A stretch of DNA of 64,000 nucleotides from positions 32,001 through 96,000 of IMG/VR virus record IMGVR_UViG_3300034101_006325; one strand, written 5' to 3'. Each line of letters starts with the position of its first letter. Positions within the stretch are counted from its first letter, which is position 1. This document shows positions 1-24,937 of this stretch, piece by piece. Source of the DNA: a virus. Lineage: Duplodnaviria > Caudoviricetes. A program made the translations under genes and the position numbers. The notes below the pieces were generated by a model. That model saw nothing but the letters and a program-made list of their open reading frames with translations, had not been told where the DNA came from and ran no database searches.

Positions 1-602
1 CAGTCATCAATAATTCCATTATAATAATGAATTTCTCGAGGATCATCGCACACAGCAAAATCGCTGTAATCGGGGTCAAGAACCAACTCAAAGTTAATTT
101 GTGTTTCCGACGACGACAAACCTTTTAGGACATTTACTAAAGATTGACCAACCTCTCGAGGACTAGAATTTTCGTACTCTTCAAGTTTACTCTTTACAAG
201 ATCAGTCAAGTCGTCCAAATTTAGCGCATCCCGTACAACTAACACATTAGGAGAATTTTGCAAGACATCAACTTCATTATTAAAGATATCATAAAGTCTG
301 GACAGGGATGTTGCGTCTTGGGCTTCGTCACCTCGTGAATTAAATCTTCGAAGAATCTCTTCCTTTGGAGGCAAAAGAACCACGACAAAGTTATTCAAAT
401 TGCTGACTTCTTTGGTCAAAGAAATACGATGATGTGACTCATCCCTACCGTAAAGCTTGGCGTAACACAGCATTGATAGACAAGATCTATCCTGAATATT
501 GTATTTAAAACCAGTCGAACGGTGTAAAGAAGAATAAAGTGAAGTTTTGCCGCTTAGATCAGAACCCTCAAGAATCAAGTAATTGACAGGAAGACTCATC
601 AT
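1..602 (-). CDS. dNMP/thymidylate-kinase-like P-loop kinase (3'-partial, runs off window start; absent from the ORF track)
   Basis: Manual translation from ATG 602 (overlaps the dnaE stop): MMSLPVNYLILEGSDLSGKTSLY...NIQDRSCLSMLCYAKLYGR...LLPPKEEILRRFNSRGDE; Tmk-type (I/L)EGxDxSGKT P-loop and DRxxxS motif; frame open to position 1. Confidence 0.8.
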   Translation of the reverse strand, partial: MMSLPVNYLILEGSDLSGKTSLYSSLHRSTGFKYNIQDRSCLSMLCYAKLYGRDESHHRISLTKEVSNLNNFVVVLLPPKEEILRRFNSRGDEAQDATSLSRLYDIFNNEVDVLQNSPNVLVVRDALNLDDLTDLVKSKLEEYENSSPREVGQSLVNVLKGLSSSETQINFELVLDPDYSDFAVCDDPREIHYYNGIIDD

Positions 603-3600
603 GCCACCTTTCTCAGCTTAAAAATTGATGTTGAAAATCCCCAACTAGGATCGTTCGATGCTTGACCTACCCAAAGTGTATAAGGATCAATAGATTCCGT
701 TGGATTACCCCAGATTCTAATCCAGCCTTGACGTGAATCATTGTCAATAGCCTTGCACCGATAGAATGCCTTTCCATTCTTTGTCTTTTTAAGGTTGACT
801 TCAGTCACGAGAAACCAACCTATACCGTCAGAACCAGGCTGTACATCGTGCAATGATTGGACACCTTTTTCAAGGAGTTTTTTCATAATGTCGGGAGGAA
901 ACAATAGATCGACGTCTGCTGTGGAAGTAAGATCATATGCCATGCTGATCTTTTCATCTCGCGTCCAATCTACAGTACTGGCTTGCTCCTCCAGCAACAC
1001 GTCAATTACTGGCAGCGGATCGATTCCTTCTTTTGCAAGCTTTTTTAGCTGAGCTGCAGTTAAACCATAGATTCCTTTTCGCAAGGTTTCATAATTTTTA
1101 TCTTCAGTCAAAGCCAACAATAATTGTCTGTGGTGTCTTACAGACCCTCCTTGAAAATCTTCAAGTGATTCCAGAGCTTCAATCTTGCAAAGTGCTGAAA
1201 GTGCAGTCTTATTGACCTTGCTGTGACGCCAATTTCCTTCTGCATCATAAAGCATTTCTTTGAGATTTTTGTAAGGTCTATTCTCCATAATTTCGTCGAC
1301 TGCAGTTGAACCAATACCCTTGGCTGAAGTAATAGGAGGAACAAATGCATCGGCTTTTTCAGAAAACTGCCATTCTTTACCTGAATAATTGATATCAATC
1401 TTGGAAAATTTGTATCCTAAAGACTTAATTTCACCAATTACCTTTGTCAGCTCTTTGGGATTTGAATTTGCCGACTGAAGAATCGTGGCAAGCCAGTCCT
1501 TCTCATAGTGAGTGTGGAGCCAGGCAGCATAGTAAGAGTCGATCGCATATGCGACGGAGTGTGACTTGTTGAAGCCATAGAGGGAGAAGAACTCGATCTT
1601 GTCGAACAGGGCATTGGTGATGTCCTCCGAGATTCCGTGGATCTCCTTTGCGCCCTTCACGAACTTCTCGCGGAGCATCGCCTTCTCGCCGCCCTTCTTG
1701 TCGAGGGTGTCGAGAGACTTCTTGACGAGAGTCTTGCGCATCTGATCTGACTCGCCAGGATTGAAGCCTGCAAGCTCAACGGCCAGGGACATGAACTGCT
1801 CCTGGAAAGTGATGAACCCGCGAGTCGGTCCGAGGACCTTCTCGATCAGCGGATGGTCGTATTTAATCTTGGTCAGGTCCTTGCCGGCGTCGACGTACAT
1901 GTTGTGGACGTTCGCTTTGAGGGGGCCAGGGCGATAGATCGCCGTGATTGCTGACAGGTCTTCGATGCAGTTTGGTTGAGACTGCATGCAGAACTTTCGA
2001 GCTCCCTGAGCAGTGAACTGAAACACTCCGACGAATCGTCCCTCATGGTAGACATGTTTCCAAACCTCGGGGTCGTCCTGCTTCACGTAGCGACAGTTGA
2101 GGTGCTTGTCGAAGAACGCCTTCACGTTGAGGAAGGTGGGATCAGGGTTTCCCTGGTTGACGAGGATCCGACGGATGCAGTTCTCCACGTCCTTGAGGAG
2201 CGTGAGTCCGAGGAAGTCGAACTTGAGGAAGCCGTTGTCCTCCAGGTTGCGGAAGTTCATGCCTTCCGTCCACGGGGTCTGCAGTTCGCCTCGGACGCCG
2301 ATGATGGGCATCGTGGCTGCAAGGTCGTCCGGATCTGCCACGATGACGCCGCCGGCGTGTCGACCGACGGATCGGTTCTGCATAAAGAGCGTCTCGACGT
2401 GTGCCGCGACGTCTGGGTACTTCTCCATGAATGCCTTGTACTTCGGAGAGTACTTCATGCAGTCCTCGTGCTTCAGGACGAAGACGGACTTCTCCTGATC
2501 GTCGTCGCGGGCGAGCGGCATCACCTCGTCCTGAAGCGGACCCGTCATCTCGTTCACCTCCTCGAAGGGCACGCCGTAGATCTTGGCGATGTCCTTGACG
2601 AGGGACTTGAGCTTCAAGGTGTTGAAGTTCGACACCGGGATCACAGCGTCGTCGCCGAACAGCTCGCGTGCCGAGTCGATCAGGGCATCGCGGTCGCCTG
2701 CGTCGGAGTCGATGTCGGGCCACGACACGCGATGGCGGCCTAGGAAACGGCTCCACAGGAGACCGTAAGGCAGGGGATCGATCTGAGTGATGCCGAGGAG
2801 GTAGTTGACGAGTGAACCTGCGCCTGAACCACGGCCGGGGCCGAACAGGGTCCGAGTCTCCGCCTTCTTGAAGATCTTGTACATCGTCACGAAGTAGGAA
2901 GCGTGACCGAGGTACTTGATGTCGGACAGCTCCTCCTTCACGCGGGCGACGTATTCTGGTTTGTCAGACAGGCCTTCACGAATCAGGGCCTCCTTGACGA
3001 GCTCAGTGAGCTGCTGGAATGTTGTCTTGCCTGGCATGTCCAGCTTCGGTAGCTTTGCTTTAACATCGACCCATGTATCCTCACAATGTTGCCATGCGAT
3101 ATCATGGGTCCTCTCGATGGCGTCTCGGACCTCCTCCTCGGAGCCTCGATAGAACTCGTACTGCTCGTAGGACTTCTTGTACTCGTCCCACATCTGGGAT
3201 GCATTCTTCGGATACAGCTCGCACTTAAGATCTTCGAACTTTGGAAGTGCCTGTTCGTCGAGCTTAGCACCCATCCATCCAAGCTTCTTGTAGAGCTCAC
3301 GGGCCTGCCACTTCGACGGGTCGGGATAGTGGGAATCGCAGGTGGCGAGCAGCTTGACGCCGGACTTTCGAGACAGGTCGATGAGGTACCTGTTGACCGT
3401 GTGCTGCTTCGGCAGCTTGTTGAACTGGATCTCGAGGAAGAAGTTCTCGGTCCCCACCGCATCCGTGAACCTGTCCGTGAGGTTCATCAGCTCGGAGATG
3501 ATCTGCTCCGAGTTCTTGCCGTAGGCCTCGCCGCGGAGGATCGTGCCGCTGTAGATTCCACCAAGGCAGGCCGTGGACCACACGATCCCCTTGCCGTACT

Positions 3601-4215
3601 TCCGGAGGAGGTCGAAGTCGATGCGTGGATAGCGGTAGAAACCGTCCTTGAACGACGCCTTCACGAGGCGATTGATGTTCGCGAGACCTTCGGCGGTCTG
3701 CGCCACCGCCACGAGGTGGTAGCGACGCTGCCAGTCGGGCTTCTCCTTGTAGTCGTCTGCCTTCGTCTCGTTCTCGTCCTCGACGACGTGTCCGCCGGCC
3801 TCTTCCTCCTCCACCTCGTCAGCGTCGACGTCGGTCCGGACCTTCGCCTTCTTCTCGGCCTCCGCAGCGGTCTTCGCGTCCTTGATCGCCTGCTTGTGTG
3901 CCTCGTAGTCGATCTTCCACTGTGTCAGCGAAGGAACGAAGTAGAACTCCACACCGTAGAGCTGCCGGTACTTCACGCCCTTCTTCTGCAGCTTCTTTGC
4001 TGCGGAATGAGCGTGTGCGAGGCCGTTGCCGTTGCCGTGGTCGGTCAGGGCCCACGCGTCCATCCCCTGTGATTCGGAGACAATCCACTTTATATGATCC
4101 TCGGGATAGCCAAGTCCGTCAAAAGTTGAGAAACCCGAAAAGCCGCCCCTGAACAAGCCAGGGGCGGCACCTACGAATGCGCGTGGAAACCGACGAATTT
4201 CTTCGGCGGCGTCAC
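599..4215 (-). CDS. dnaE: DNA polymerase III alpha subunit (family C, DnaE-type) with PHP domain; N-terminus discontinuous (see 4136-4176)
   Basis: Motifs TDHG, GVEFY, STACLGG, TCDSHY, GPGRGSGAGSLV, PDIDSD, GRHAGGV, KFDFLGL, YGFNKSHSVAY. Track ORF starts at TTG 4156 and lacks the first PHP motif, which is encoded upstream as GTG4215-MTPPKKFVGFHAHS after an AAGGAG RBS. Confidence 0.95.
4136..4176 (-). other. candidate translational-bypass (coding gap) element in dnaE
   Basis: TCG(4176-4174)-TAG-GT-GCCGCCCCTG-GCTTGTT-CAGGGGCGGC-TTT-TCG(4138-4136); skipping 38 nt restores HAHS-GFSTFDG. Confidence 0.75.
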
Positions 4216-4643: not shown

Positions 4644-5648
4644 CTAATTATTAGGACATTTTGGAAAGTGCTGCAAGAGGTCAAACTTATGCTCGGCCGC
4701 CTCGTCGAGGTACTTTAGCGGATTATAGTCGGAAGAATTGCGGATCCATTCCAGCGTCCGCTGAATACCGTCGAGCAAATCAAGTGTTGGTTTCCAACCA
4801 AGCTTTTCTCGAATTTTTCTGGATGACAACCGGTGGTTTCCGAGATAGTCTGTTGTCGGGTGCCACCTCACGAGATCAGATGCCGATGCACCGACAACAT
4901 CGTCTATAATCTTCATCACTTCTCCTGCAGGCACTGGTGTCTCCGCGGAGACGTTCCAGTCTGTCCCCCAACCGGGCCCGGAGACGTCGCGGCATACTAG
5001 CTCAACAGCCCTGCAAAAATCCTCCACATGGAGGTAGTCCTTTACCTTCGTCGGATCCAGAAACATATCCACGGATTTCTTTCCGTTGAGGTAAGCATAA
5101 ATCGACTTCGCGATGAGCGAATTCATATCACCGAGGCCACCAAACGCGAATAGCGGTCGAACGATAGTCCACCTATCTGCCATTGCTGTGACAATCTGTT
5201 CTGCGGCGAGCTTCTGGACGCCATAATAAGTCCGAGGAATCTTTGTTGAATTTTCTACAATCTGTTCGTCTTGATAACTCTTCGTATCATAGATGACAGT
5301 TGTTCCTAGATAGCAAACTGCAGCCTTTGCTCGATTGGCAGCACGAACAATGTTGTATGTGCCTTGGACGTTGGATAGTGTCGCCTCTGCAGGATCAAGG
5401 GCAACCACGTCTGTTCCGACCACAGCAGCATTGTGAACGACGACGTCGACATCATTGTCGTAAAGCGCTTTATGCCAAGTTTCCTCCGAATTCCTGTGGA
5501 TGCATGCCTCCCCGGTGCGTGGAAACTTGACGTAATCTATTCCCTCGAACAGATCCTTGTCGGTCACGACTTCCTGTGAAAGAGATTCTAGAACGACCTT
5601 GAGATTACGAGCGATCAGGCCCTGTGGTCCGGTGATATAGTACTTCAT
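4644..5648 (-). CDS. NAD-dependent NDP-sugar epimerase/dehydratase (extended SDR)
   Basis: ITGPQGLIA Rossmann motif, VVHNAA, YYGVQK (YxxxK), IVRP, DYLHVEDF, WKPTLDLLDGI. Confidence 0.9.
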   Translation of the reverse strand: MKYYITGPQGLIARNLKVVLESLSQEVVTDKDLFEGIDYVKFPRTGEACIHRNSEETWHKALYDNDVDVVVHNAAVVGTDVVALDPAEATLSNVQGTYNIVRAANRAKAAVCYLGTTVIYDTKSYQDEQIVENSTKIPRTYYGVQKLAAEQIVTAMADRWTIVRPLFAFGGLGDMNSLIAKSIYAYLNGKKSVDMFLDPTKVKDYLHVEDFCRAVELVCRDVSGPGWGTDWNVSAETPVPAGEVMKIIDDVVGASASDLVRWHPTTDYLGNHRLSSRKIREKLGWKPTLDLLDGIQRTLEWIRNSSDYNPLKYLDEAAEHKFDLLQHFPKCPNN

Positions 5649-5784: not shown

Positions 5785-6258
5785 TCACTCAATTTCCTTG
5801 TCGTAAGGCTCATACAACAGCTCACCAGCAGTCTTACAGCGCTCGAGGTAATCCTCCAACTGATCAAATGATGTGCAGACCTTGATGCCGCTGCGACTGA
5901 GCATCAAATTAAACTTTGCACCAGAAGGGAGATTTTCGCAGAAATAAACGATCTTGGTGCCGTATGCATATGATGCACCGGCCTCCCAGATGGTACCAAT
6001 GTCGCGGTATGTCGTGTTGACGAGGCAGAAATCAGCCTTCTTGATGTGATCAACATTGCCCTTGAACACATTGTCCTGTACCTCCTGCGTTGCATCTGGT
6101 GGACAGACGAAGATTCGACGGGGGGACGCAAGGTTTATCCAGGCAGAGCGATCGTCAAAGACCTTTTCCAACTTTGTGAGTTGCTTGTCCTGATCTGGAG
6201 AAAACCAACCTGATGCCAAATATACGTGAAGCTTACGACCAAAATTATTAGCGCTCAT
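5785..6258 (-). CDS. nucleoside 2-deoxyribosyltransferase / nucleotide N-glycosidase (NDT/Rcl/MilB superfamily)
   Basis: VYLASGWFS, HIKKADF, DIGTIWEAG (catalytic Glu motif). Confidence 0.85.
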   Translation of the reverse strand: MSANNFGRKLHVYLASGWFSPDQDKQLTKLEKVFDDRSAWINLASPRRIFVCPPDATQEVQDNVFKGNVDHIKKADFCLVNTTYRDIGTIWEAGASYAYGTKIVYFCENLPSGAKFNLMLSRSGIKVCTSFDQLEDYLERCKTAGELLYEPYDKEIE

Positions 6259-6267
6259 ATGTTCCTT

Positions 6268-6849
6268 TCAAAAATTAGTATGATAGTTTATATTCAAATA
6301 CTGGGCGTCGAGAGCAACATCGCTGACAAGAGATTTTGGTCCTGCGACGAAGACTTCCGTGCTGCTCTGACCATTGTACAGGTAGCGGAGAAGTTGTTTA
6401 GGGCGTGAGCAATTTTTTGTGTTTACAAAATAAGCTCGTGCAAATTGTGGATAAAAATTGCTGAGGGCTAGAGGATCAAGTCCACGCGAACAGATGCCGA
6501 TCATAGGATTTATTCCTCTGCTGAAGAGTTGATTGATCAAAAGTGCGACTGCTCCAACGCCAGTGCCACCAGCAATCACGATGGCTGATGAAGATGATGC
6601 TGTTGGAAAACCTTTGCCGGAAGGAAATTCAACCTTGTCGATCTCCTCGCGAAAGAGGAAGGAGCTAGATTTGACGATGAATGTCAGCGTGGAATCGGTA
6701 AAATCGGCGATCGCAACCCACCTGCCGTTGACGACTGCACAGGATCCTGGAATAATGTGCTGTGTTAGCCCAGGATGGGTCAGGACGACTTTCTGATAAT
6801 CTCCACCAAGGTTTGTATTCTCGATTATTTGAAAATTATCCTGACCCAT
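6268..6849 (-). CDS. ferredoxin-NADP reductase-like FAD/NAD(P)-binding protein (PyrK-like)
   Basis: FPSGKGF, IVIAGGTGVGAV, VFVAGP motifs; lacks a C-terminal Fe-S domain. Confidence 0.65.
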   Translation of the reverse strand: MGQDNFQIIENTNLGGDYQKVVLTHPGLTQHIIPGSCAVVNGRWVAIADFTDSTLTFIVKSSSFLFREEIDKVEFPSGKGFPTASSSSAIVIAGGTGVGAVALLINQLFSRGINPMIGICSRGLDPLALSNFYPQFARAYFVNTKNCSRPKQLLRYLYNGQSSTEVFVAGPKSLVSDVALDAQYLNINYHTNF

Positions 6850-6856
6850 TGCCGTG

Positions 6857-7840
6857 TCACTTTCCGTTCTTCCAGTCGTCGTGGCGCGACTTTAGTGTGG
6901 ACCAGTCGGTCATGTCCTTGTTCCACAGCTCAGTAAAGCGTTTTTGTTGACCGGAGCCATGGGTGCCATTCAGTTCCTCACGCGTTGATTGGTAGATCGT
7001 ATCATTTGGATGAAACTCAAAGATATCGTTCTTCTTGATCGGCCAATAGAGATTGGTTCCCCTCGACACAAACTTGTCGCCTTCCTTGACCCTGAAGGTC
7101 TTGACATAGTGCATGTCAGGCTTGTTGAAGTCGATGACAGAAGTAAATTCTGGCATCACCTTGGCGACTTCCACTGCCATTCGAGAGGCGAGGAGATTGT
7201 CGGCGGCAGGCTGAATCTGTGTGTCCATGCGTTGGTAGATGAATCCAATCAGATCCTTTAGTGATAGACGCATGTAATAGAACGAAGTCATGCACTTTGG
7301 CAGGATCATCCTCGCATCCATCATTGATACGACCTTGGAATCTGTCATGTCGGCGTAGAGCTGCTTTGATTCCTCAACAAGCTTAGTCCATCGTGCGAGA
7401 AACTCGGGTGAGTTCTGGACGGGCTCCGGGATTACAGCATCGTCGTCGCGGAGGTCGCGGTCTCCAGTGCACTGTGCTGCGAAAGTGCCAGCGCGGTGGC
7501 GGATGATGTGTGTCACCTCCTGGAAGGAGAGACCGCTGAGGCGGAACGTGAAGCCGAGACACTCCATCGGTGCAGGAAGAGTACGTCCTCCGAACACGTC
7601 CTCGAGGTTCTTGGAAAGTTCACGCTCAGTTACACCTCGTGTAGGATCAATATCCGGGCGATCGGCCCATGTGGCCTTGACATAGTGCCATGCAACATTC
7701 CAGGCCTGTTGTCGCGTGGGGTGGTCGACGAGTTCCACCTTGAGTGCGTCGAGGTTGTTGTGGAATTGTGTCTTTGGCTTGCGGCCAAACTTGAGTTCCA
7801 TGGGAAGATCTACGGGCTGAAGGTCACGATTAATAGGCAT
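6857..7840 (-). CDS. divergent ThyX-family flavoprotein
   Basis: ECLGFTFRLSGLS, HIIRHRAGTFAAQCTGDR (altered RHRx7S signature), DARMILP. Confidence 0.8.
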   Translation of the reverse strand: MPINRDLQPVDLPMELKFGRKPKTQFHNNLDALKVELVDHPTRQQAWNVAWHYVKATWADRPDIDPTRGVTERELSKNLEDVFGGRTLPAPMECLGFTFRLSGLSFQEVTHIIRHRAGTFAAQCTGDRDLRDDDAVIPEPVQNSPEFLARWTKLVEESKQLYADMTDSKVVSMMDARMILPKCMTSFYYMRLSLKDLIGFIYQRMDTQIQPAADNLLASRMAVEVAKVMPEFTSVIDFNKPDMHYVKTFRVKEGDKFVSRGTNLYWPIKKNDIFEFHPNDTIYQSTREELNGTHGSGQQKRFTELWNKDMTDWSTLKSRHDDWKNGK

Positions 7841-7862: not shown

Positions 7863-7891
7863 ATTATACGCGCTAATTTGAAACATTTCAC
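7863..7891 (-). promoter_or_regulatory. sigma70-like promoter of the ThyX-like gene
   Basis: GTGAAA-N17-TATAAT, then AAGGAG RBS. Confidence 0.55.
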
Positions 7892-8850
7892 TGCAAAGAT
7901 TCAAGTATGATATTTGCGGCATCGAAGGGATCCGAGCCTTCCGAGACGTAGGTTATATTCTTGAGAGAAGACACCTCTGTGTTGTATGTCTTCTGGGGTA
8001 CGACAACTTGGACACCATGCTTTGCATATTCTGCAGAATGTTTGGCCGAGTCGTCAACGGCAAAAAACTTTCCCGTCGAATAGAATTTTTGGTCCGCCAC
8101 CCAAGCAAATTTTTCAGGTGCAAAAGTTATTGCATCTGCAGGTATGTTGTGCCTGTAGAGCCACGAGTATGTGTCGTAGAAACATGTAAGATTTTTTTCA
8201 GGTCGTGCCGTGATTATCTGGATCCAGCAGCCTTTGTCTTTCAGTTTCCTCAGCGTCTCACAATATCGATGATTGGGATGAAGCCCCAAAAAACCATGCT
8301 TGTCAATAAAAGTTCTAAAATAATACTCATTGCTCAAGCCGTGCTTTTTAAACGTCGTAACGTTATAATATTCGGGACAATGAGGATCGATGAAAATTCC
8401 GCTATCTTTTGTGACAAACTCGCAGAAAGACGATCTAAACTCCGCCAAGACATCGTCCATGTCGAAAAGAACAACAGGCTCACCATTCCACTTTCTTTGT
8501 GAGAGCGTGTGTCTATAGTGCAGAAATTCATCCTTCTGCTTCAAGGCGTTCACAAATTGATCACCATCAATTGAGCACAAATTTAAAATTGCAAGAATAT
8601 AACGATATGCATCTACAGATTTATAGAGGACTTTTTGAGAGTCAATTGAATCGGGCAGAAGCCGATGATTCTTGTAATTTGCGCCTTCGACGATCCCCGT
8701 CGCTTCAGAATGTAAAGACAAAACAAAGGTCTTGAGCAATTCCTGCTTCTGACTCAGGGTGAGCTGTTTTTCATCAAAAAACAGAGATGAAAAATCTGCT
8801 TGACGCGACAAGGCATCAAGCAGATTTCCCCAATCAATTTGTGAATTCAT
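7888..8850 (-). CDS. degenerate MazG-like domain fused to HAD-family 5'(3')-deoxyribonucleotidase
   Basis: C-terminal VLFDMDDVLAEF (DxD), IITARP, FAVDDS; N-terminal helical domain resembling the adjacent MazG-like ORF. Confidence 0.75.
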   Translation of the reverse strand: MNSQIDWGNLLDALSRQADFSSLFFDEKQLTLSQKQELLKTFVLSLHSEATGIVEGANYKNHRLLPDSIDSQKVLYKSVDAYRYILAILNLCSIDGDQFVNALKQKDEFLHYRHTLSQRKWNGEPVVLFDMDDVLAEFRSSFCEFVTKDSGIFIDPHCPEYYNVTTFKKHGLSNEYYFRTFIDKHGFLGLHPNHRYCETLRKLKDKGCWIQIITARPEKNLTCFYDTYSWLYRHNIPADAITFAPEKFAWVADQKFYSTGKFFAVDDSAKHSAEYAKHGVQVVVPQKTYNTEVSSLKNITYVSEGSDPFDAANIILESLQ

Positions 8851-8866
8851 GTATGCATTCTATGTC

Positions 8867-9232
8867 TTAATAGCCTGATTTTACACGCCGGACATTTACT
8901 TCGCCTTTTTTCATGAAGGCTTCGTACAATTCTTCCACAGATATTCCACTATAAATGACGATGCCAAAGAAATAATGCAGGGCATCCACAAGCTCTTCTT
9001 TGTAAGATTCACGATCAAAATCTTTGACCTCAGTTACTCGATGTGCTTTGCTGTTCTTTAGAAGATGATTTGCTTCAAAAAGTTCATGCATGCATTCATG
9101 TGCAAGACCTTTGAGCATTTGTTGATTTTTCTTTTCTCTAAGGTCAAGAGGAAAGTCTGGCATTTGACGTTCATCTCGCAAGAGTACATTGAAGTCTCTT
9201 TGCTGATTGTACATTTTTTCTAGCTTGTCCAT
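8867..9232 (-). CDS. MazG-like / dimeric dNTP pyrophosphatase
   Basis: HECMHELFEA...EELVDALHY acidic metal-binding pattern; start placed at MDKLEK (RBS AAGGA). Confidence 0.8.
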   Translation of the reverse strand: MDKLEKMYNQQRDFNVLLRDERQMPDFPLDLREKKNQQMLKGLAHECMHELFEANHLLKNSKAHRVTEVKDFDRESYKEELVDALHYFFGIVIYSGISVEELYEAFMKKGEVNVRRVKSGY

Positions 9233-9246
9233 TGTTGTTTCCTTAA

Positions 9247-10251
9247 TCACAGAACTTGAGCTGCAATTAAACAGCCTCTAGCAACAGCATGCAGAGGATC
9301 GGCAGCATGTCGAACTTCCTTGACTGGCAGTGGGAAATTGTTCTCCTTTAACTTTGAAGCAAACATTTCGACAAAACCTTTGGCCTTTGAGGTGCCTCCG
9401 GCGACGACGACGGGTAGAGCATCTTTAAATTTTGGCAATGATTTGTGGCCATCCATTGCGGCTGCAAGCTGCTTCGTAGTATAATCGATGAGACGTTCAT
9501 AATAGGCAGCAACTGCAGCAAGGACTTGATTGTCATTAGGTTGACCGACGGTGAAATCGCCTGATTCTTTCTCAGCTTGGACAATTGAATCAGCCTCACC
9601 CGTGGCGACTGCAGACATGCGATCTACCCAGTCACCGCTCTTAGTAGTTGAAAACTTGACTACAGGCTCACCATTGAGCATAACACAAACATTGACCATG
9701 CCAGCTCCCCACGAGAGACAAACACCCGTATAGTCATCCTTATCAAGTTCGGAATAACAAAGAGCCTCTGCCTCATTTATTGCTCTTGCAGAATAGCCTA
9801 CTTCAGTTAGAAGTTTAACGATGACGTCTTCATGATACCCAACATCGAAATCATCATCTTCTTGATCGATCGGTTGTGCTGGGACACAGAACACAAGTTT
9901 TTCTCCTTCTTCGCTTGGTTTTCCAGCAACTTCTTTAAGGATAAAAGTCAAAATTTTTCTCGCATCTTTTTCTTTGGACGAGACGACGCCACGGTACATT
10001 GGTCTCTTTGCGGAGTCATTTCTCTCCACAGCTTTTTCAATTGCATCGGCACCGAGCAGAATAAATGAACCATCAGAGTCTTTAACAAATGTTTTTCCTG
10101 TAAGACCTTTTTCGATCATCTTTGTAGCAATTGGTGTGGTTGGCTTGATAACATAAAAAGCATCCCTAAAATCTTTATAGTTGACCTTTCCTTTGTTTCC
10201 TTCCGAAGCTAGAACAATGAATGATGTACCTACGTCTAAACCCTTAGCCAT
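9247..10251 (-). CDS. actin-family ATPase (volactin-like)
   Basis: GLDVGT (phosphate 1), INEAEA (connect 1), SWGAGMVNV (phosphate 2), VVAGGTS (adenosine), HAVARG (connect 2). Confidence 0.9.
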   Translation of the reverse strand: MAKGLDVGTSFIVLASEGNKGKVNYKDFRDAFYVIKPTTPIATKMIEKGLTGKTFVKDSDGSFILLGADAIEKAVERNDSAKRPMYRGVVSSKEKDARKILTFILKEVAGKPSEEGEKLVFCVPAQPIDQEDDDFDVGYHEDVIVKLLTEVGYSARAINEAEALCYSELDKDDYTGVCLSWGAGMVNVCVMLNGEPVVKFSTTKSGDWVDRMSAVATGEADSIVQAEKESGDFTVGQPNDNQVLAAVAAYYERLIDYTTKQLAAAMDGHKSLPKFKDALPVVVAGGTSKAKGFVEMFASKLKENNFPLPVKEVRHAADPLHAVARGCLIAAQVL

Positions 10252-11249: not shown

Positions 11250-12302
11250 TTACAATTTTCCATGTGGTCCATTTTCTTGGACCCCATTGGATGTAATCTG
11301 AACAAATTTTGATTTTGAACGAAGTTCTCTAATTGTTTGAGCACCAGAATAAGAAAGCCCTGACTTAATACCTTCGAGTAAATCTGTCAGGGTGTTCTTT
11401 AATTCGCCTTTATAAGGTATGAGCGTTGTTTCTCCCTCTGTGACTGAAACTTTTCCTCTCCACTCAAGCTGAGCTTCGCGTGAAGCCATGCCTCTAAAAT
11501 TCTTATAAATTCTGTTATCTTTTGTGATCAACTCACCGGGCGATTCATCGTGTCCTGCAAGAATAGATCCTAGCATAATCATGTCAGCTCCTGCTGCAAG
11601 AGCTTTCACAGCATCACCGCTGTTTCTAATTCCTCCATCAGCAACAATCAAAACATCTCTATCGGACTTTGCACAGTCCATAATTGACTGCAAGGTAGGA
11701 ATGCCATGACCTGTCCTAATTCTTGTTGTGCACATGGAACCACCACCAATTCCTACACGCAAAGAATCTGCGCCCCAGTCGGCAAGGTCATTAAATGCAT
11801 CAAGTGTTGCAATATTGCCTGCCATGATATGAATATCATTACTGTAGATTTTTCTTAAAGATTCCAAAGCACGTCTTGTATGACCATGATGACCATGAGC
11901 AACATCAATACAAAATGCTCTACAGCCTGAGGCATGTAGTTCAGCTGCACGTTCCAGATAATCTCCTGTCGCACCAATTGCAACCATGATATTGTTTTCA
12001 TTTGACTTATTCGTTACAAGCTTTTTTGTTTGCAAATATTCACGATTTGCCTCATCGATAGAGCAATATCGATGAAGAACGCCAAATCCTCCTGCGTCAG
12101 CCAAAATAGAAGCCGAAGATGGACTAATTACTGTGTCCATAGGCGAGCCTACAATTGGACATAAAAGATTTGATTGTTTGGCTGTTAGTCTTGCAAAAGT
12201 CTCGTCAAAACCAGGCACAGACAAATCCACTGATGACCTGGTTTCAATTTCTGAGTATTGTGGGACGAGCAGGACATCATCAAAACAAACAGCTCTTTGC
12301 AT
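11250..12302 (-). CDS. IMP dehydrogenase / GMP reductase family (no CBS domains)
   Basis: [58 protein letters not shown]; start placed at MQRAVCF. Confidence 0.92.
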
Positions 12303-12348
12303 ATATGATGTTATACACAAAGAGCTGAAAGATTTATCAGGCTAAATT

Positions 12349-14739: not shown

Positions 14740-15270
14740 TTACATCTCGACAAACAATGACCAATCTTCGTGCCATGACGTAGGTCTAGACAAATCCCAA
14801 TAATGAAATGCATTAGGTTCTACAGGCTGTTTTAAAAGTTTCATGCCAGCCTCTTCCGGCGTTCTATTGCCTTTATTATTGTTACAACGCCTGCAAGCTG
14901 CAACACAATTTTTCCAAGTTGTTCCGCCGCCGCGCGAAGCAGGCTGAATATGATCGACAGTTATGACTGCATAATTGAGGTCAATTCCACAATATTGACA
15001 TTTCCATGAGTCACGATTGAAAAGAACTTTTTTCTGAAATCTTGGCGGTTTTCTATATGAACGCTTGTTGACATAATACTTAAGTCGCAATACGGCGGGA
15101 AGTCTAAATTCTCGTGTCGGCGTGTTAATGCAATCATCCCAATAGGAAGGCAAACCAGTAAGACCTGAAGCAACTTCGACTCGGTCTTTGAGCATCAATT
15201 TAATTGCTCTGCTGCCATCGATAAATTGCAAAGGTTCGCCGTTACAGTTCAGAAGAAGTGACCGATTCAT
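14740..15270 (-). CDS. HNH endonuclease (McrA-like)
   Basis: RDSWKCQYCG, TVDHIQPASRGG, NCVAACRRCNNNKG; start placed at MNRSLLLN. Confidence 0.9.
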   Translation of the reverse strand: MNRSLLLNCNGEPLQFIDGSRAIKLMLKDRVEVASGLTGLPSYWDDCINTPTREFRLPAVLRLKYYVNKRSYRKPPRFQKKVLFNRDSWKCQYCGIDLNYAVITVDHIQPASRGGGTTWKNCVAACRRCNNNKGNRTPEEAGMKLLKQPVEPNAFHYWDLSRPTSWHEDWSLFVEM

Positions 15271-15289
15271 AACGGTTCCTCCTTGAAGC

Positions 15290-16120
15290 TTAAATATCGA
15301 CGTTCCCAGCGATCTGTGGCGCTCCATACTGCGATTTTCCAACTTTTGCATGAAGATTCGGAAGAATATCCCCTGTAAAACGACCATGTGTGTGGCCAGA
15401 CAATACAGTAAACTGTGTGTTAGGATATGTTTTAGCCGCAGATAATAACATTTCACCCATCATTCTTGATGTATACCACGGGATCACTAGTTCCGAATCA
15501 ATGCTGTCGAACTTTTCTTTCGTATAAGACTCAACAAAAGGCGGGAAATGAGTTGCGATAATCAAATGATCAAAATCGTCTACTGTGGCTTTTATTCCCT
15601 TGAACACATGAGAAACTGATGCTTTGCAAATTGATCTCGCTATTTGCAGAATAATTCCTTTGTCAAGCGATCTGCCCATGACTGTTGGTCGAACGGCAGG
15701 CGCAAAATCACTAATTTTAAGCCAATCATTCATTATAATTTCGCTGTCGGCAACATTACCATTGATACCATCATACCAGCCATCAGATCCAATAAGAACA
15801 GTCGAGTTATTCAGTTTAACATATGGAACTGCACCAAGGTATTTAGAAAAAGAAAGGTACCTGCATGCTTCAGTTACTTTTCTCCTTGTCTCAAGAATAT
15901 TCGAAAAATAATAATCATGATTTCCCATTACGAAATAAATGGGTTTATTCAGAGAACTCTCCAACTGCTTCAGATGCTGTACTATCGAAGTACCCACTGA
16001 AATATCACCCGTAATAATCACGGCTTCTGATGAGCCGGCTTCCAAATTTAATCTTGCAATTGTATCTCGAAGATTGTCTACACAATCAAGATGTATATCT
16101 GTAAACCAAGCAATTTTCAT
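15290..16120 (-). CDS. calcineurin-like metallophosphoesterase (CpdA/Icc-like)
   Basis: TDIHLD, ITGDIS, MGNHD, ATHFPP, SGHTH. Confidence 0.9.
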   Translation of the reverse strand: MKIAWFTDIHLDCVDNLRDTIARLNLEAGSSEAVIITGDISVGTSIVQHLKQLESSLNKPIYFVMGNHDYYFSNILETRRKVTEACRYLSFSKYLGAVPYVKLNNSTVLIGSDGWYDGINGNVADSEIIMNDWLKISDFAPAVRPTVMGRSLDKGIILQIARSICKASVSHVFKGIKATVDDFDHLIIATHFPPFVESYTKEKFDSIDSELVIPWYTSRMMGEMLLSAAKTYPNTQFTVLSGHTHGRFTGDILPNLHAKVGKSQYGAPQIAGNVDI

Positions 16121-17100
16121 AAAGACCGGCCATATCTGACGGCAGGAGTCATCTTAAAATCAAAATTAATTGTTGCTCTATTGGCGTCCAAAATGCAAGG
16201 TGCTCCCATCGGTATGGGGCACGTATATTTGCCATGAGAAAAACTCACGCCATAAATACAAGGTGGTCCATCTTTCAAATATTGAAGAATTACTTCTTCA
16301 AGAGTCGCGGCATCATTTCCATAGCCTTCTTTTTTAGGAAGGTCAAAAAATTCTCCCAATACTATCCCAGCGAGTTTGTTAAGAACACCAGCAAGCTTAA
16401 GATGTAAAAGCATCCTTGAAAGTTCCATAGAACTAGTTTTTGTGTCCTCAAGAAAAAGTATAGTATTTTCAACATCTGGAAAGTAGTCTGTTCCAATTAA
16501 ATGTACGAATGTGTTGAAATTTCCACCTATCGCACAACCTTTTGCAATGCCTGGCGATACAGTTCGCGGCTGCATTTCATTTATACAAAAAGGCTTATCT
16601 CCCCAGTGTTGTTCTGACATGAGAAGTTCTAAGGCTAACTTAAGAGAAGTTGTATCACATTCTACTGCAGTATTGCCTTTGTCGCATCTTACAGCTGCTC
16701 CTCTGCCATTAATTGTAACAAGTCTAGCTTTTGTCAATATTCCCATTGATATTGAAGTATTATCAGACTTGCCAAGAAAAGGCTTTTGAGATTTTCTTAT
16801 AGTATCAAAATTAAGATAAGGAAGCAAAGCTGCAGCTCCTTCGCCCCCGCGTGCAGCAATTACAGCCGAAATATTGGGATCTGAAAATGCCCAGTTGAGT
16901 TCTTCAGCTCTTTCTTGAACACTTGCAGAATTATGAATTGTCGTCCTTAAATTCTTAACACATGGGCCTAGAATAGGATTGAGACCACATTCTCTTATTG
17001 CATCCAATCCTGCTAACAATTCATTTGACATGAAAGTAGCAGATGGTGCAACAACTGCAACATTGCTTCCTGCACGAACTCTTTTTGGTGGTATGTACAT
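16117..17100 (-). CDS. LD-carboxypeptidase (peptidase S66, LdcA/MccF family)
   Basis: VVAPS, RGGEGA, FLGKSD (Ser), LFLED (Glu), FSHG (His). Confidence 0.9.
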   Translation of the reverse strand: MYIPPKRVRAGSNVAVVAPSATFMSNELLAGLDAIRECGLNPILGPCVKNLRTTIHNSASVQERAEELNWAFSDPNISAVIAARGGEGAAALLPYLNFDTIRKSQKPFLGKSDNTSISMGILTKARLVTINGRGAAVRCDKGNTAVECDTTSLKLALELLMSEQHWGDKPFCINEMQPRTVSPGIAKGCAIGGNFNTFVHLIGTDYFPDVENTILFLEDTKTSSMELSRMLLHLKLAGVLNKLAGIVLGEFFDLPKKEGYGNDAATLEEVILQYLKDGPPCIYGVSFSHGKYTCPIPMGAPCILDANRATINFDFKMTPAVRYGRSL

Positions 17101-17122: not shown

Positions 17123-17383
17123 TCAAACAGAAATTTGAGTTAGTTTGTTTTTAATTTGATCAATAATCTCAAATGTTTGTGAATATTCCAGCCGTGCTTG
17201 TGCAAGTCGATTGGTCATCTTTTGCTTTTTTGAGGCATCCCATTTTTTTGAACTTTTGCGATTCATAATGTCTTCATATCTTTCAATCTTTCCTTTTGTG
17301 TCAATTTGAATCTTTGTAAATTGATCAAGCAGATTATCAAGATATTCTTTTTCTGAAATAGCTTTTTTCTTAACAGTTTTCAT
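17123..17383 (-). CDS. hypothetical basic coiled-coil protein
   Basis: 86-aa ORF in operon context. Confidence 0.6.
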   Translation of the reverse strand: MKTVKKKAISEKEYLDNLLDQFTKIQIDTKGKIERYEDIMNRKSSKKWDASKKQKMTNRLAQARLEYSQTFEIIDQIKNKLTQISV

Positions 17384-18147
17384 TACAACCTCTCTATCAT
17401 TTTATTAAAAATTTCTTCGTCTTTCTCGACGACAATAAATTTTCTGCCTAATTTTCTTGCAGAAAATGCAGTTGCTCCACTGCCAGCAAAAGGATCAACA
17501 ACGATGTCACCTGGGTCGGTGTGGACTTCAATAGGGATCTCAACGACACGTTCAGCTTTTTGGGTAGGATGCAATTTACCTCTAAATATTTCAGTAACGT
17601 CTGTCCAGACATTTGTTCGACGATAGAACTCACTCTTAGCTGGATACTTTTCATTGTAACCAGCATACCCTCTCTTCGTCTCGAGGAGCGGGATGTTGAA
17701 CTTTAAAGGCTTCTTTGGATTTCCCTTGATGAAGTAGGCGAGTTCTTCACGCGTAAAGAGATAGTTGTTTTGGACTCCATACGCACGCTTCTTTGACCAG
17801 GTAATGAGATTGGCCATCTTAAAGTTATCATCTTCAACTCTCGTGAGATACTTGATGAAAGGACGGAAATCAGGAAGTCCAATACCTCCCCAGACATAGA
17901 ATGCTCCTCCTTGAAGTAGAACCTCCGACCACAATCGTGTCCATTGGATCATGTGGTCGGCATATTGGTCGTCAGTCGTCTTTACCCGATCCCATTCCTG
18001 CATGACTATGTTGCCATAAGGAGGATCAGTTGCGATCAGAGGTACTCCTCCGGTTTCGCCTAGCCACGCTTTAACTTCTTCAATTGTATCTCTTGAAGAA
18101 GAATCGCCATTAATAGCAAGTCCATCTTTAAACTCAACTTTCTTCAT
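17383..18147 (-). CDS. DNA N6-adenine/N4-cytosine methyltransferase (beta class)
   Basis: TDPPY near N-terminus, HPTQK, DPFAGSG near C-terminus. Confidence 0.92.
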   Translation of the reverse strand: MKKVEFKDGLAINGDSSSRDTIEEVKAWLGETGGVPLIATDPPYGNIVMQEWDRVKTTDDQYADHMIQWTRLWSEVLLQGGAFYVWGGIGLPDFRPFIKYLTRVEDDNFKMANLITWSKKRAYGVQNNYLFTREELAYFIKGNPKKPLKFNIPLLETKRGYAGYNEKYPAKSEFYRRTNVWTDVTEIFRGKLHPTQKAERVVEIPIEVHTDPGDIVVDPFAGSGATAFSARKLGRKFIVVEKDEEIFNKMIERL

Positions 18148-23696: not shown

Positions 23697-24281
23697 TTAA
23701 ATTATGCCAAAAACTTTTAAAGAATTAAGCAAATCTCGCGAGACTTCTTCGATGGTTTGATTGCAATTAATCACTTGAGATTTATCAATGTTTTGATCTG
23801 CCCATTCTTTATAGATTTTTCTCACACTTAATTGCAATTTTTGATCAGACTCATAAACATCTTCAGCAATATGAGCATGAGATTGACCCAATAAAATAAT
23901 TGTGCAATCTGGGACCTTTAATCTATCATATAATTTTTTTGTGAATTCTTGAGAAACACCAGAAGCTTCTCCGTATACAACGGTTGATAGACTCCAGCGG
24001 TCCATTATAATAAAGTCATAAGACTTTTCAAGACGAGGTAGAACTGTCCACTGAAATATTTGTCTATTGAAGTATTGAAACCACTGAAATAATCTGGGGA
24101 ATTTCTTGGCTAGGCCATTCCCTAACATCCAATAGATGACTCCATGAATTATATTGGATTTAATTGGCACTTCGACGACTACAGCTTTTTTACCCGTGAG
24201 CTTTAAGTAATCACACAAAATATTGCTCTGCGTCGCCTTGCCGCAGCGATCAGGCCCTTCAATTACAAGAAATTTGCTCAT
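23697..24281 (-). CDS. tmk: thymidylate kinase
   Basis: VIEGPDRCGKATQ, IIMDRWSLSTVVY. Confidence 0.9.
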   Translation of the reverse strand: MSKFLVIEGPDRCGKATQSNILCDYLKLTGKKAVVVEVPIKSNIIHGVIYWMLGNGLAKKFPRLFQWFQYFNRQIFQWTVLPRLEKSYDFIIMDRWSLSTVVYGEASGVSQEFTKKLYDRLKVPDCTIILLGQSHAHIAEDVYESDQKLQLSVRKIYKEWADQNIDKSQVINCNQTIEEVSRDLLNSLKVFGII

Positions 24282-24937
24282 TCAAATGGTCCTCTAATTA
24301 CACCATTTATTGTTAATCCAAAAGCAGCTAAAGTATCATCAAATTTTCCTGTTTCTTTCACGAGATCCAACATTTGTCGAGCAATTTCTCTAATCTCCAG
24401 CTGCGCATGCTCTGAGTAACGTAGATGAAGAAAGTGATAAAAGCTTCTAAAATTAAACATGACATCTGCAGTAATTTGATTTCCATAAGGCAAATAAAAT
24501 CTTGCAGACTCTTTGGCACGTTTTCTTGGAACACCTTTTTTAACCAGCCTGTTTAAAGCTTCATGGTATTCTTTTAAAGAATTTTCCATGTGAGTAATGT
24601 AATTGAGACGTTCCTCTTCATCCCAATCTACTGGCGTGTAATATTTGTCGTCTTTGAGTTCTTTGTACCTTGCTGACTCCGCATTGATTGATACGCCTAC
24701 TCTGTGTTTCAATAGATGCACGTGTGACGCAATATCTGTTGTTACCAAAAAATGAAGACTTGACTTTTCAAAAACAGAATGATGTTCATTTTCAGCCAAC
24801 ATCTTAAGAAGCTGAGGAATTCTATTCCTCTTTTCTTCGTTTAATTCTCGAGAAGTTGAAGTCCACGCAGAAAGTGCGTGTGTTTCATCAGACCCATAAG
24901 TTCCAATTAATTCTACCCTATTTTGACTAGAAGGCAT
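24278..24937 (-). CDS. thyX: FAD-dependent thymidylate synthase
   Basis: EHHSVFE, KHRVGVSINAESARY, ESARFYLP, FNFRSFYHFLHLR, HAQLEIR. Confidence 0.92.
   Translation of the reverse strand: MPSSQNRVELIGTYGSDETHALSAWTSTSRELNEEKRNRIPQLLKMLAENEHHSVFEKSSLHFLVTTDIASHVHLLKHRVGVSINAESARYKELKDDKYYTPVDWDEEERLNYITHMENSLKEYHEALNRLVKKGVPRKRAKESARFYLPYGNQITADVMFNFRSFYHFLHLRYSEHAQLEIREIARQMLDLVKETGKFDDTLAAFGLTINGVIRGPFE

Follow-up and report, generated by a model that had tools for sequence, protein, structure and literature searches.

A phage flavoprotein with the ThyX fold and a rewritten active site, encoded in a conserved nucleotide module: a possible pyrimidine C5 hydroxymethylase

In flavin-dependent thymidylate synthase (ThyX or FDTS; EC 2.1.1.148; e.g. 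Thermotoga maritima TM0449 and Mycobacterium tuberculosis Rv2754c), residues Ser88 and Tyr91 (T. maritima numbering) are strictly conserved and critical (PMC11940539, PMC8316439). Both are proposed acids in methylene transfer, with Arg90 raising the acidity of Tyr91, and Arg174 has been assigned to the activation of deoxyuridine monophosphate (dUMP; PMC8316439). The tyrosine also acts as a lid that keeps solvent off uracil C5 and flavin N5 (PMC6514825), and methylene transfer is more than 100-fold slower in the Y91A variant (PMC8316439, PMC11940539). Here, we describe a ThyX-like protein encoded at 6857..7840 on the minus strand of a 64 000-nucleotide stretch of phage DNA (bases 32001–96000 of IMG/VR record IMGVR_UViG_3300034101_006325; hereafter the window), in which the ThyX fold is retained and most of this residue set is replaced throughout a large viral family. 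Tentatively, and at slightly less than an even chance, we suggest that it is a flavin-dependent C5 hydroxymethylase of dUMP or deoxycytidine monophosphate (dCMP).

The ThyX-like protein shares with TM0449 and Rv2754c the fold, the RHR motif and the equivalents of Arg147 and Arg174, and probably the same methylene relay. It differs from them in the replacement of Ser88, Arg90, Tyr91 and His53, in a score below the curated cut-off, in N- and C-terminal additions, in forming a clade of its own and in its gene neighbourhood. PolB (PDB entries 4p5a and 4p5b), which methylates C5 of uridine monophosphate (UMP) and dUMP in polyoxin biosynthesis, is likewise a ThyX paralogue with altered specificity. 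However, PolB remains a methylase and serves an antibiotic pathway in Streptomyces, whereas the ThyX-like family is confined to phages, belongs to a DNA-precursor module and has lost the Ser/Arg-Tyr set. The initial annotation of this DNA had drawn an analogy with PolB; it holds for the fold, PolB being the top structural match, and not for the context, a phage DNA-precursor module rather than an antibiotic cluster.

The closest functional models are SPO1 gp29 and T4 gp42, ThyA-fold hydroxymethylases of dUMP and dCMP that carry out pre-replicative C5 hydroxymethylation of a pyrimidine deoxynucleoside monophosphate (dNMP). Their fold and cofactor chemistry are unrelated to those of the ThyX-like protein (a cysteine–folate ternary complex as against a flavin relay), and the ThyX-like module has a nucleoside 2-deoxyribosyltransferase (NDT) as an extra constant partner. 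The pool-clearing sets of SPO1 and T4 (dCTPase/dUTPase, dTMPase, dNMP kinase, dCMP deaminase and glucosyltransferases) are resembled by the pyrophosphatase, nucleotidase, kinase and deaminase genes near the ThyX-like gene and by an α-glucosyltransferase (a-gt)-like gene in Geobacillus phage GR1. Bacillus phage SP-15, the DNA of which contains hypermodified thymine, encodes two Thy1 proteins, the divergent one of which (gp130) was proposed by its authors to be the synthase of 5-hydroxymethyl-dUMP (PMC5977210). SP-15 thus resembles the window phage in having a canonical ThyX and a divergent second Thy1 protein, and gp130 may serve by analogy as a precedent for a hydroxymethylase. Membership of gp130 in the ThyX-like family was considered and ruled out: it lacks the RHR motif, hhalign gives a probability of 4.1% and its position in the tree is attributed to a long branch.

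Fold, active site and family of the ThyX-like protein

The source record is 200 303 bp in length with a CheckV completeness of 61% and therefore derives from a jumbo phage. Two of its genes, both on the minus strand of the window, match Pfam Thy1 (PF02511; cut-off 24.8 bits), and no ThyA-family gene (PF00303) was found in the 200-kb record. The 219-residue product of 24278..24937, which contains KHRVGVSINAESARY, scores 129.2 bits with Thy1 and 105.5 bits with the NCBIfam thyX equivalog TIGR02170 (cut-off 87.9 bits) and clusters with other canonical phage ThyX proteins, in agreement with its earlier description as the canonical copy. The ThyX-like protein (327 residues; motif RHRAGTFAAQCTGDR; residues 112–133, IIRHRAGTFAAQCTGDRDLRDD) scores 64.5 bits with Thy1 and 34.6 bits with TIGR02170, below the equivalog cut-off, and has no PF00303 match. 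The two proteins can hardly be aligned pairwise (BLASTP E = 0.004). The open reading frame (ORF), the Thy1 match, the equivalog score and the residue alignment given below bear out the initial annotation of a second ThyX paralogue with a rewritten active-site motif.

An AlphaFold2 model of the ThyX-like protein, built from 54 family sequences, has a mean predicted local distance difference test (pLDDT) score of 94.8 and a predicted template-modelling (pTM) score of 0.91. A Foldseek search with this model returned ThyX structures exclusively (E of ∼1e-10, target-normalised TM-scores of 0.73–0.76), with PolB as the top match (E = 2.8e-10, TM-score 0.73). Alignment to M. tuberculosis ThyX with VIA gave a Z score of 16.7 and a root-mean-square deviation of 3.0 for 210 residues, and the Z score to PolB (16.0) is level with that to ordinary ThyX. 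The structure prediction and superposition proposed in the initial annotation thus place the protein in the ThyX fold and also locate its extra length. The Thy1 domain spans residues 51–231, and the additions comprise ∼25 N-terminal residues and ∼60 new residues (∼240–300) ahead of the last helix. Structural alignments with T. maritima ThyX extend to model residues 306–313, within the long last helix (300–324) at the end of the chain. The C-terminal extension of ∼90 residues noted earlier is therefore real as extra length, but is better described as an insertion of ∼60 residues followed by a long last helix than as a plain tail.

Active-site residues were mapped by aligning the ThyX-like sequence and its family profile to solved ThyX chains. 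The RHR motif that binds flavin adenine dinucleotide (FAD), with which the ThyX signature RHRxxSxxxxSxR(Y/F) begins, is kept as Arg114/His115/Arg116, as are the nucleotide arginines Arg177 (equivalent to Arg147) and Arg204 (equivalent to Arg174). Ser88 is replaced by Cys124, Arg90 by Gly126 and Tyr91 by Asp127, which is followed by Arg128. His53 is replaced by Leu88 in the segment LPAPMEC, which corresponds to H-x-x-P-x-E-H in ThyX; the histidine of this segment belongs to the site for folate and reduced nicotinamide adenine dinucleotide phosphate (NADPH) in T. maritima ThyX.

A protein search with the ThyX-like sequence recovered 991 proteins, the best 120 of which are 77–98% identical to it, and a library of 50%-identity representatives contains 360 clusters of the family at E ≤ 0.001. 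The family is nearly all viral (Atlas clusters are 86–97% viruses), and in 185 579 prokaryote species genomes it was found on four contigs only, all of them phage-like pieces of metagenome-assembled genomes (MAGs). Among 257 aligned members, Arg114 is present in all, Arg116 in 252, Arg177 in 254 and Arg204 in 255; Tyr162 and Glu93 are also near-invariant. The replacements are conserved as well, with Leu88 in 243 members, Asp127 in 230 (Glu in eight others) and Gly126 in 202 (239 when Gly and Ala are taken together). Cys124 is found in 193 members and is absent from the variants VHGDR (25 members), THADR and GTGDR, so that the constant novelty is Gly-Asp-(Arg/Lys) and not the cysteine; a role for Cys124 as a universal nucleophile was ruled out on the same grounds. 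Judged from this conservation across the family, the rewritten motif is no chance lesion. No association emerged when the motif variants were compared with the presence of canonical ThyX.

A phylogeny of 132 rows was calculated with FastTree, a quick method, without bootstraps. The canonical phage ThyX proteins, including the 24278 copy and SP-15 gp9, make up one starred group of 12, and the ThyX-like rows are without exception on its far side, the window protein falling within a starred jumbo-phage clade. The tree called for in the initial annotation therefore separates the ThyX-like protein from ordinary ThyX. With its catalytic residues replaced, its score below the curated cut-off and its place apart in the tree, the protein is not filed here as a thymidylate synthase.

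Ordinary thymidylate synthesis and the conserved nucleotide module

The canonical thyX gene of the window is followed by a thymidylate kinase gene (23697..24281, minus strand; PF02223, 54.6 bits) that overlaps its stop codon, and both adjoin ribonucleotide reductase. A dCMP deaminase gene and a thymidine kinase gene are found a short way upstream of the window. Both Thy1 genes are present in 19 of 35 related jumbo-type records, among them the single record rated 100% complete and all others with a completeness of 70% or more; that each of these relatives keeps canonical ThyX argues that the ThyX-like copy is not a synthase of deoxythymidine monophosphate (dTMP). The 40.7-kb genome G044, which has terminal repeats, carries the genes for the ThyX-like protein, dCMP deaminase and canonical ThyX inside a stretch of ∼2 kb.

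Thirteen complete phages of ∼40–57 kb carry the ThyX-like gene; three of them also have canonical ThyX and one also has ThyA, with Asn at the base-specifying position. The remaining nine have no other thymidylate synthase. GR1 (OK896991), which has been cultured on Geobacillus stearothermophilus ATCC 10149 and the 79-kb genome of which is complete, encodes a ThyX-like homologue that is 48% identical to the window protein, and neither canonical ThyX nor ThyA was found when its genome was searched for them. These phages bear on the reading that the ThyX-like protein is a divergent dTMP synthase with another acid/base set (Asp, Cys and Arg128), and perhaps another reductant or one-carbon donor, which acts as a second or condition-specific source of dTMP. 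We regard this as unlikely, if far from negligible. In its favour, the protein retains the FAD motif and the two nucleotide arginines, one of them equivalent to the dUMP-activating Arg174 (PMC8316439), a dUMP-making dCMP deaminase gene adjoins the ThyX-like gene in five of the nine phages that have the ThyX-like gene only, and a neighbouring MazG protein is dUTPase-like. However, the critical Ser88 and Tyr91 are replaced family-wide, and G044 and every near-complete jumbo relative would have to keep a redundant gene. Furthermore, it is the canonical copy that varies among closely similar 41-kb phages, never the ThyX-like copy, and a dTMP-only pathway offers no role for the glucosyltransferase and kinase-like neighbours described in the next section.

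The gene neighbourhood was compared in two sets of loci: set 1 comprises 80 jumbo-type IMG/VR loci with ThyX-like proteins of 57–91% identity, and set 2 comprises 85 loci of lower identity to the window protein (GR1, 48%; MAG contigs, 35–45%) from ∼40-kb PolA phages, mid-size DnaE phages, GR1 and MAG contigs. The gene order MazG, NT5C-like, ThyX-like, NDT, short-chain dehydrogenase/reductase (SDR) epimerase, DnaE and a kinase of ∼300 residues is kept in set 1, and all of these genes lie on the minus strand in the window. The free-standing MazG/dimeric-dUTPase-like nucleoside triphosphate (NTP) pyrophosphatase (8867..9250, 127 residues; Pfam dUTPase_2, E = 3e-6; PHROG nucleotide pyrophosphohydrolase) is found in 71 of the 80 set-1 loci. 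The adjacent NT5C-like protein (7888..8850, 320 residues) combines a MazG-like NTP pyrophosphatase with a 5'-deoxynucleotidase of the NT5C/HAD type; its N-terminal 120 residues are MazG-like (98.1% in hhalign to a MazG alignment), and Pfam NT5C covers residues 125–253. The NDT-family protein (5785..6258, 157 residues; PF05014; PDB entry 6evs, E = 1e-12), with the catalytic Glu motif WEAG, is encoded in 77 set-1 loci and 80–81 set-2 loci (157/165 overall), in set 2 usually less than 1 kb away. The SDR-type NDP-sugar epimerase/dehydratase (4644..5648, 334 residues; Pfam Epimerase, 96 bits; best PDB matches to dTDP-glucose 4,6-dehydratases) is present in 65 set-1 loci. DnaE-type DNA polymerase III α (599..4156, 1185 residues; Pfam DNA_pol3_alpha, finger, PHP and HHH_6) is present in 49 of them and also in the DnaE-type loci of set 2. 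Also frequent are a P-loop kinase, the MazG/dimeric-dUTPase-like protein, a dCMP deaminase (38 loci) and DUF6378 (49 loci).

The MazG-HAD fusion is found in 69 of the 80 set-1 loci, none of which encodes an HD enzyme, and an HD_3/YfbR-like phosphohydrolase (PHROG 'dATP triphosphohydrolase', E = 4e-19) is found in all 85 set-2 loci. The net reaction of the fusion would be the conversion of a deoxynucleoside triphosphate (dNTP) to the deoxynucleoside, equal to that of the HD triphosphohydrolase. We read the two as a non-orthologous replacement inside one fixed pathway logic, with NDT as the constant element; as such, the exchange is a clean example of a conserved logic of nucleotide-pool clearing or rerouting. 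In a Clostridia MAG contig (L090:8482-9489), NDT forms one protein of 335 residues with a kinase-like P-loop (AAA_18) domain at its N terminus, a further sign that NDT and a kinase share one pathway with the ThyX-like enzyme.

A similar architecture is known from the 2-aminoadenine (dZ) module, which consists of PurZ, DatZ (an HD dATPase), MazZ and DpoZ, plus an NDT (bioRxiv 10.1101/2025.10.22.683976). A base-making enzyme, an HD triphosphohydrolase, a MazG protein, an NDT and a polymerase are common to both, whereas the base-making enzyme of the ThyX-like module would be a pyrimidine C5 enzyme. A dZ/PurZ system was ruled out for the small phages, with no PurZ in the 13 complete small phages or the window record. 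A 284-kb complete relative that has the ThyX-like module (G029; IMGVR_UViG_3300030419_008158) contains an adenylosuccinate-synthetase-like ORF of 346 residues at 212797–213723, which is of PurZ size, is shorter than cellular PurA and was not found in the window record or the small phages.

The composition of the module also bears on whether the ThyX-like protein is a DNA-precursor enzyme at all. Within a salvage trio its substrate could instead be a free base, a nucleoside or some other molecule that contains uracil, or the protein could be a non-catalytic nucleotide-binding or regulatory one: its only invariant partners are the salvage-type NDT and the nucleotidase, the kinase is present in only some small-phage loci, and two nucleotide contacts of ThyX (Ser88 and Arg90) are gone. 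Such a role appears rather improbable, as RHR, Arg177 and Arg204 are kept in 252–257 of the 257 members, as expected of an active monophosphate-binding flavoenzyme, phages of several unrelated types have the gene next to that of the replicative polymerase, and the strong conservation of Gly-Asp-Arg points to a working active site.

The gene between those of the ThyX-like protein and NDT in the window (6268..6849, minus strand) encodes a candidate minimal FNR/PyrK-like flavin reductase of 193 residues. It has weak NCBIfam matches to PyrK and NAD(P)H-flavin reductase (E of 0.005–0.05), its AlphaFold2 model is of low confidence (pLDDT 63) and matches only FNR-family reductases in Foldseek (E of ∼1e-8), and it is lineage-specific, with five close homologue clusters only. 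The equivalent position in GR1 is taken by a nitroreductase that is unrelated to this protein. That two flavin reductases without homology to each other adjoin one and the same kind of enzyme is suggestive. Such a partner is plainly dispensable, however, and was ruled out as a general one, since neither the FNR-like ORF nor the GR1 nitroreductase has a counterpart in the 165 other loci.

The initial annotation proposed a changed substrate or chemistry. The lost catalytic residues, the separate clade, the coexistence with canonical ThyX and the module together speak strongly, if indirectly, for a change of this kind; a particular new substrate or product is what we infer in the following.

Proposed reaction and modified base

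Genes linked to hydroxymethyl bases occur beside the ThyX-like gene in several lineages. The GR1 gene row contains, next to the ThyX-like gene, NDT, HD, kinase and a glycosyltransferase of 459 residues that matches the PHROG 'alpha-glucosyltransferase' (E = 6e-53); in tblastn it matches the a-gt genes of 440 records, mostly of T4-like phages, at ∼23% identity. T4 a-gt glucosylates hydroxymethylcytosine (hmC) in DNA. A Bacillales MAG contig with RecT, YqaJ and NinG (L093) has an HMUDK_hel ORF (Pfam, 48.4 bits; gathering cut-off 25) between the ThyX-like and HD genes. HMUDK_hel is the helical domain of 5-hydroxymethyldeoxyuridine (5-hmdU) DNA kinase, an enzyme of thymidine hypermodification pathways. 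No ThyA-family match was found in the MAG of this contig, which is incomplete, and no relatives of the HMUDK-like protein were found in IMG/VR or isolate phages. A third protein, P0145, is a fusion of a GT2-like glycosyltransferase to a ThyX-like domain; longer fused forms were looked for and not found. These three lineages, with no ThyA-type hydroxymethylase found in the sequence records concerned, appear to link the ThyX-like protein to hydroxymethyl bases. A 5-hmdU DNA kinase as a general partner was ruled out, as it is present in one of 50 records.

A GT4 'conflict-system' glycosyltransferase is encoded ∼9 kb downstream of the ThyX-like gene in six mid-size loci, and the genome of the window phage has a homologue of it (G000 170163-171410, 415 residues; phmmer E = 7.5e-64). 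The surrounding region (G000:C1 ∼153000-173000) is a sugar-nucleotide gene cluster with this 415-residue glycosyltransferase and two more SDR dehydratase-like ORFs, possibly a DNA-glycosylation or surface-glycan locus.

In the reaction that we propose, a neofunctionalised ThyX-fold flavoenzyme would still bind FAD and a pyrimidine deoxynucleoside monophosphate and would transfer a one-carbon unit, probably from methylene-tetrahydrofolate via N5 of the reduced flavin, to C5 of the base. In ordinary ThyX the tyrosine lid excludes water at this stage and the flavin then reduces the exocyclic methylene. With the lid tyrosine changed to Asp, Arg90 to Gly and Ser88 usually to Cys, water, possibly activated by Asp127, could add in place of hydride. 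The product released would be other than dTMP, most likely a 5-hydroxymethyl nucleotide. Such a cycle would be redox-neutral, with flavin reduction needed for activation only and for occasional re-reduction, which fits the loss of His53 and the occasional presence of non-homologous flavin reductases. A hydroxymethyl product would likewise explain why reductases are dispensable and why glycosyltransferase and kinase genes occur nearby. The product would be phosphorylated by the kinase of the module and then used by the phage polymerase, while MazG, MazG-HAD (or HD) and NDT would reshape competing or precursor pools. No characterised flavin-dependent hydroxymethylase was found in a search of the literature.

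Somewhat more guardedly than the assignment of the window protein itself, we suggest that the family is the first ThyX-fold pyrimidine-dNMP hydroxymethylase and, at the same time, part of a widespread and so far unrecognised pre-replicative base-replacement pathway. This pathway would be common to the abundant aquatic jumbo phages, ∼40-kb phages and GR1, with a core of the ThyX-like protein, NDT and a phosphohydrolase that converts dNTP to nucleoside. If so, the ThyX scaffold, which is known for reductive methylation only, also supports redox-neutral hydroxymethylation, and many phages annotated as carrying 'thymidylate synthase ThyX' have modified DNA, which would affect the reading of phage metagenomes, escape from restriction and CRISPR, and the supply of enzymes for making modified DNA. 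The availability of GR1 in culture makes the question directly testable.

Whether the base would be dUMP or dCMP is about equally likely either way. The dUTPase-like MazG, the thymidylate-kinase-like kinase, the HMUDK-like gene of L093 and the retained Arg204 point to dUMP, as does the dCMP deaminase gene that adjoins the ThyX-like gene even where no other thymidylate synthase is present. Additionally, the cysteine is absent in some clades, and activation must therefore proceed by polarisation as in ThyX, which again points to dUMP. On the side of dCMP, full dTTP synthesis is encoded by the phage, so that the dNTP-destroying device (MazG-HAD or HD with NDT) cannot be aimed at T. In ThyA-type enzymes a change of Asn to Asp shifts specificity towards cytosine, and the Asp that stands here in place of the Arg/Tyr pair, close to the base, is reminiscent of it. 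The GR1 transferase has an hmC enzyme as a relative, and the kinase carries a miniature domain of the Asp type (see below). Alternatively, the partners would serve not for exclusion but for supply, with dUMP fed by the nucleotidase, the deaminase, dUTPase, thymidine kinase and NDT acting with uracil; canonical ThyX alongside would fit such an arrangement. A search of 27 records from related lineages revealed no C5 cytosine methyltransferase, an absence that fits a C5-modified cytosine weakly. Palindrome avoidance, used as a test of C as against T modification, gave observed/expected ratios of ∼1 in all composition classes and did not discriminate between the two.

The kinase in question is a P-loop dNMP kinase (YorR/thymidylate-kinase-like), the first 200 of its 303 codons lying in the window (1..602, minus strand) and the remainder past the window start; the full gene is at G000:C1:31691-32602 and extends ∼310 bases beyond the window. 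It matches the PHROG thymidylate kinase (E = 3e-10) and YorR (PDB entry 2axp, E = 3e-8), and the GR1 kinase is homologous to it (phmmer E = 2.7e-8). Its C-terminal ∼100 residues, encoded just outside the window, form a mini ThyA/dCMP-hydroxymethylase-like domain (hhalign with T4 gp42, probability 73%, E = 3e-5, 87 columns). Cys233, Arg253, Ser254, Asp264 and His296 are invariant in 17 homologues, and the consensus keeps SRR (Arg224 and Arg225 being invariant) and the Asp of RSTD with the spacing of the aligned gp42 residues; Asp264 aligns with Asp179, the cytosine-specifying residue of gp42. From its sequence, the mini domain may be a second pyrimidine-modifying enzyme or a specificity domain. 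It is confined to DnaE-type lineages, GR1 and L093 having the kinase without it, and therefore cannot explain the universal trio.

Several of the points in favour of dCMP would serve equally for a flavin-dependent dCMP C5-methylase that supplies 5-methyl-dCMP for full cytosine replacement, as in Xanthomonas phage XP12, in which cytosine is fully replaced by 5-methylcytosine. A full dTTP pathway coexists, the dNTP-to-nucleoside enzyme and NDT resemble an exclusion device for a canonical nucleotide other than T, the Tyr/Arg-to-Asp change mimics the ThyA-type switch, and both the lack of a C5 cytosine methyltransferase in the 27 records and the Asp-type mini domain would agree with it, although the former counts for little among related lineages. 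Each round of methylation would, however, use up reduced flavin, which sits poorly with the replacement of His53 and the lack of a conserved reductase. A methyl group would give the glycosyltransferase and kinase neighbours no handle, and the lost Tyr lid suggests access of water. We consider a dCMP methylase improbable.

Against a hydroxymethylase of either base stand the following observations. The ThyX-like gene is the sole gene of thymidylate synthase type in nine of the 13 complete small phages and in GR1, where its product could simply be a dTMP synthase. The neighbours linked to hydroxymethyl bases are few: the a-gt-like gene occurs in one record, the GT2 part of P0145 (22.1 bits) is below the Pfam cut-off of 23.3 bits, and the HMUDK-like gene, in one of 50 records, is recognised by the Pfam model only. 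The flavin reductase neighbour is not conserved, the 193-residue ORF having been found in none of the 165 other loci. The VHGDR and THADR variants lack Cys124, so that a mechanism with a cysteine nucleophile cannot be general, and the evidence on the base is in conflict between dUMP and dCMP.

Other features of the window

The G+C content of positions 2001–4000, inside the DnaE gene, is 58.8% over 2 kb, as against 39–50% in the flanks; this sharp island could stem from newly acquired DNA, the remains of an intein or a codon effect. Minus-strand genes for an N6/N4 DNA methylase (17383–18147; PF01555), an HNH endonuclease (14740–15456) and an LD-carboxypeptidase (16117–17100) lie between the two nucleotide clusters of the window, and from the methylase gene the phage is predicted also to methylate adenine or N4-cytosine.

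A 334-residue actin-family protein (9247–10251, minus strand; Pfam Volactin, 223 bits, E = 8e-66) is encoded beside the nucleotide module and was found in none of the 80 related loci. Volactin is an actin of haloarchaea, and if the family is haloarchaeal a phage-encoded copy next to a nucleotide module would be unusual. The protein encoded at 11250–12320 (minus strand; 356 residues) has an IMPDH/GMP reductase domain (Pfam IMPDH, 316 bits), its other matches being to overlapping families of flavin mononucleotide (FMN) enzymes only. It is probably a purine interconversion enzyme of the guanosine monophosphate (GMP) reductase type and, as such, would be a further pool-shaping gene of the phage.

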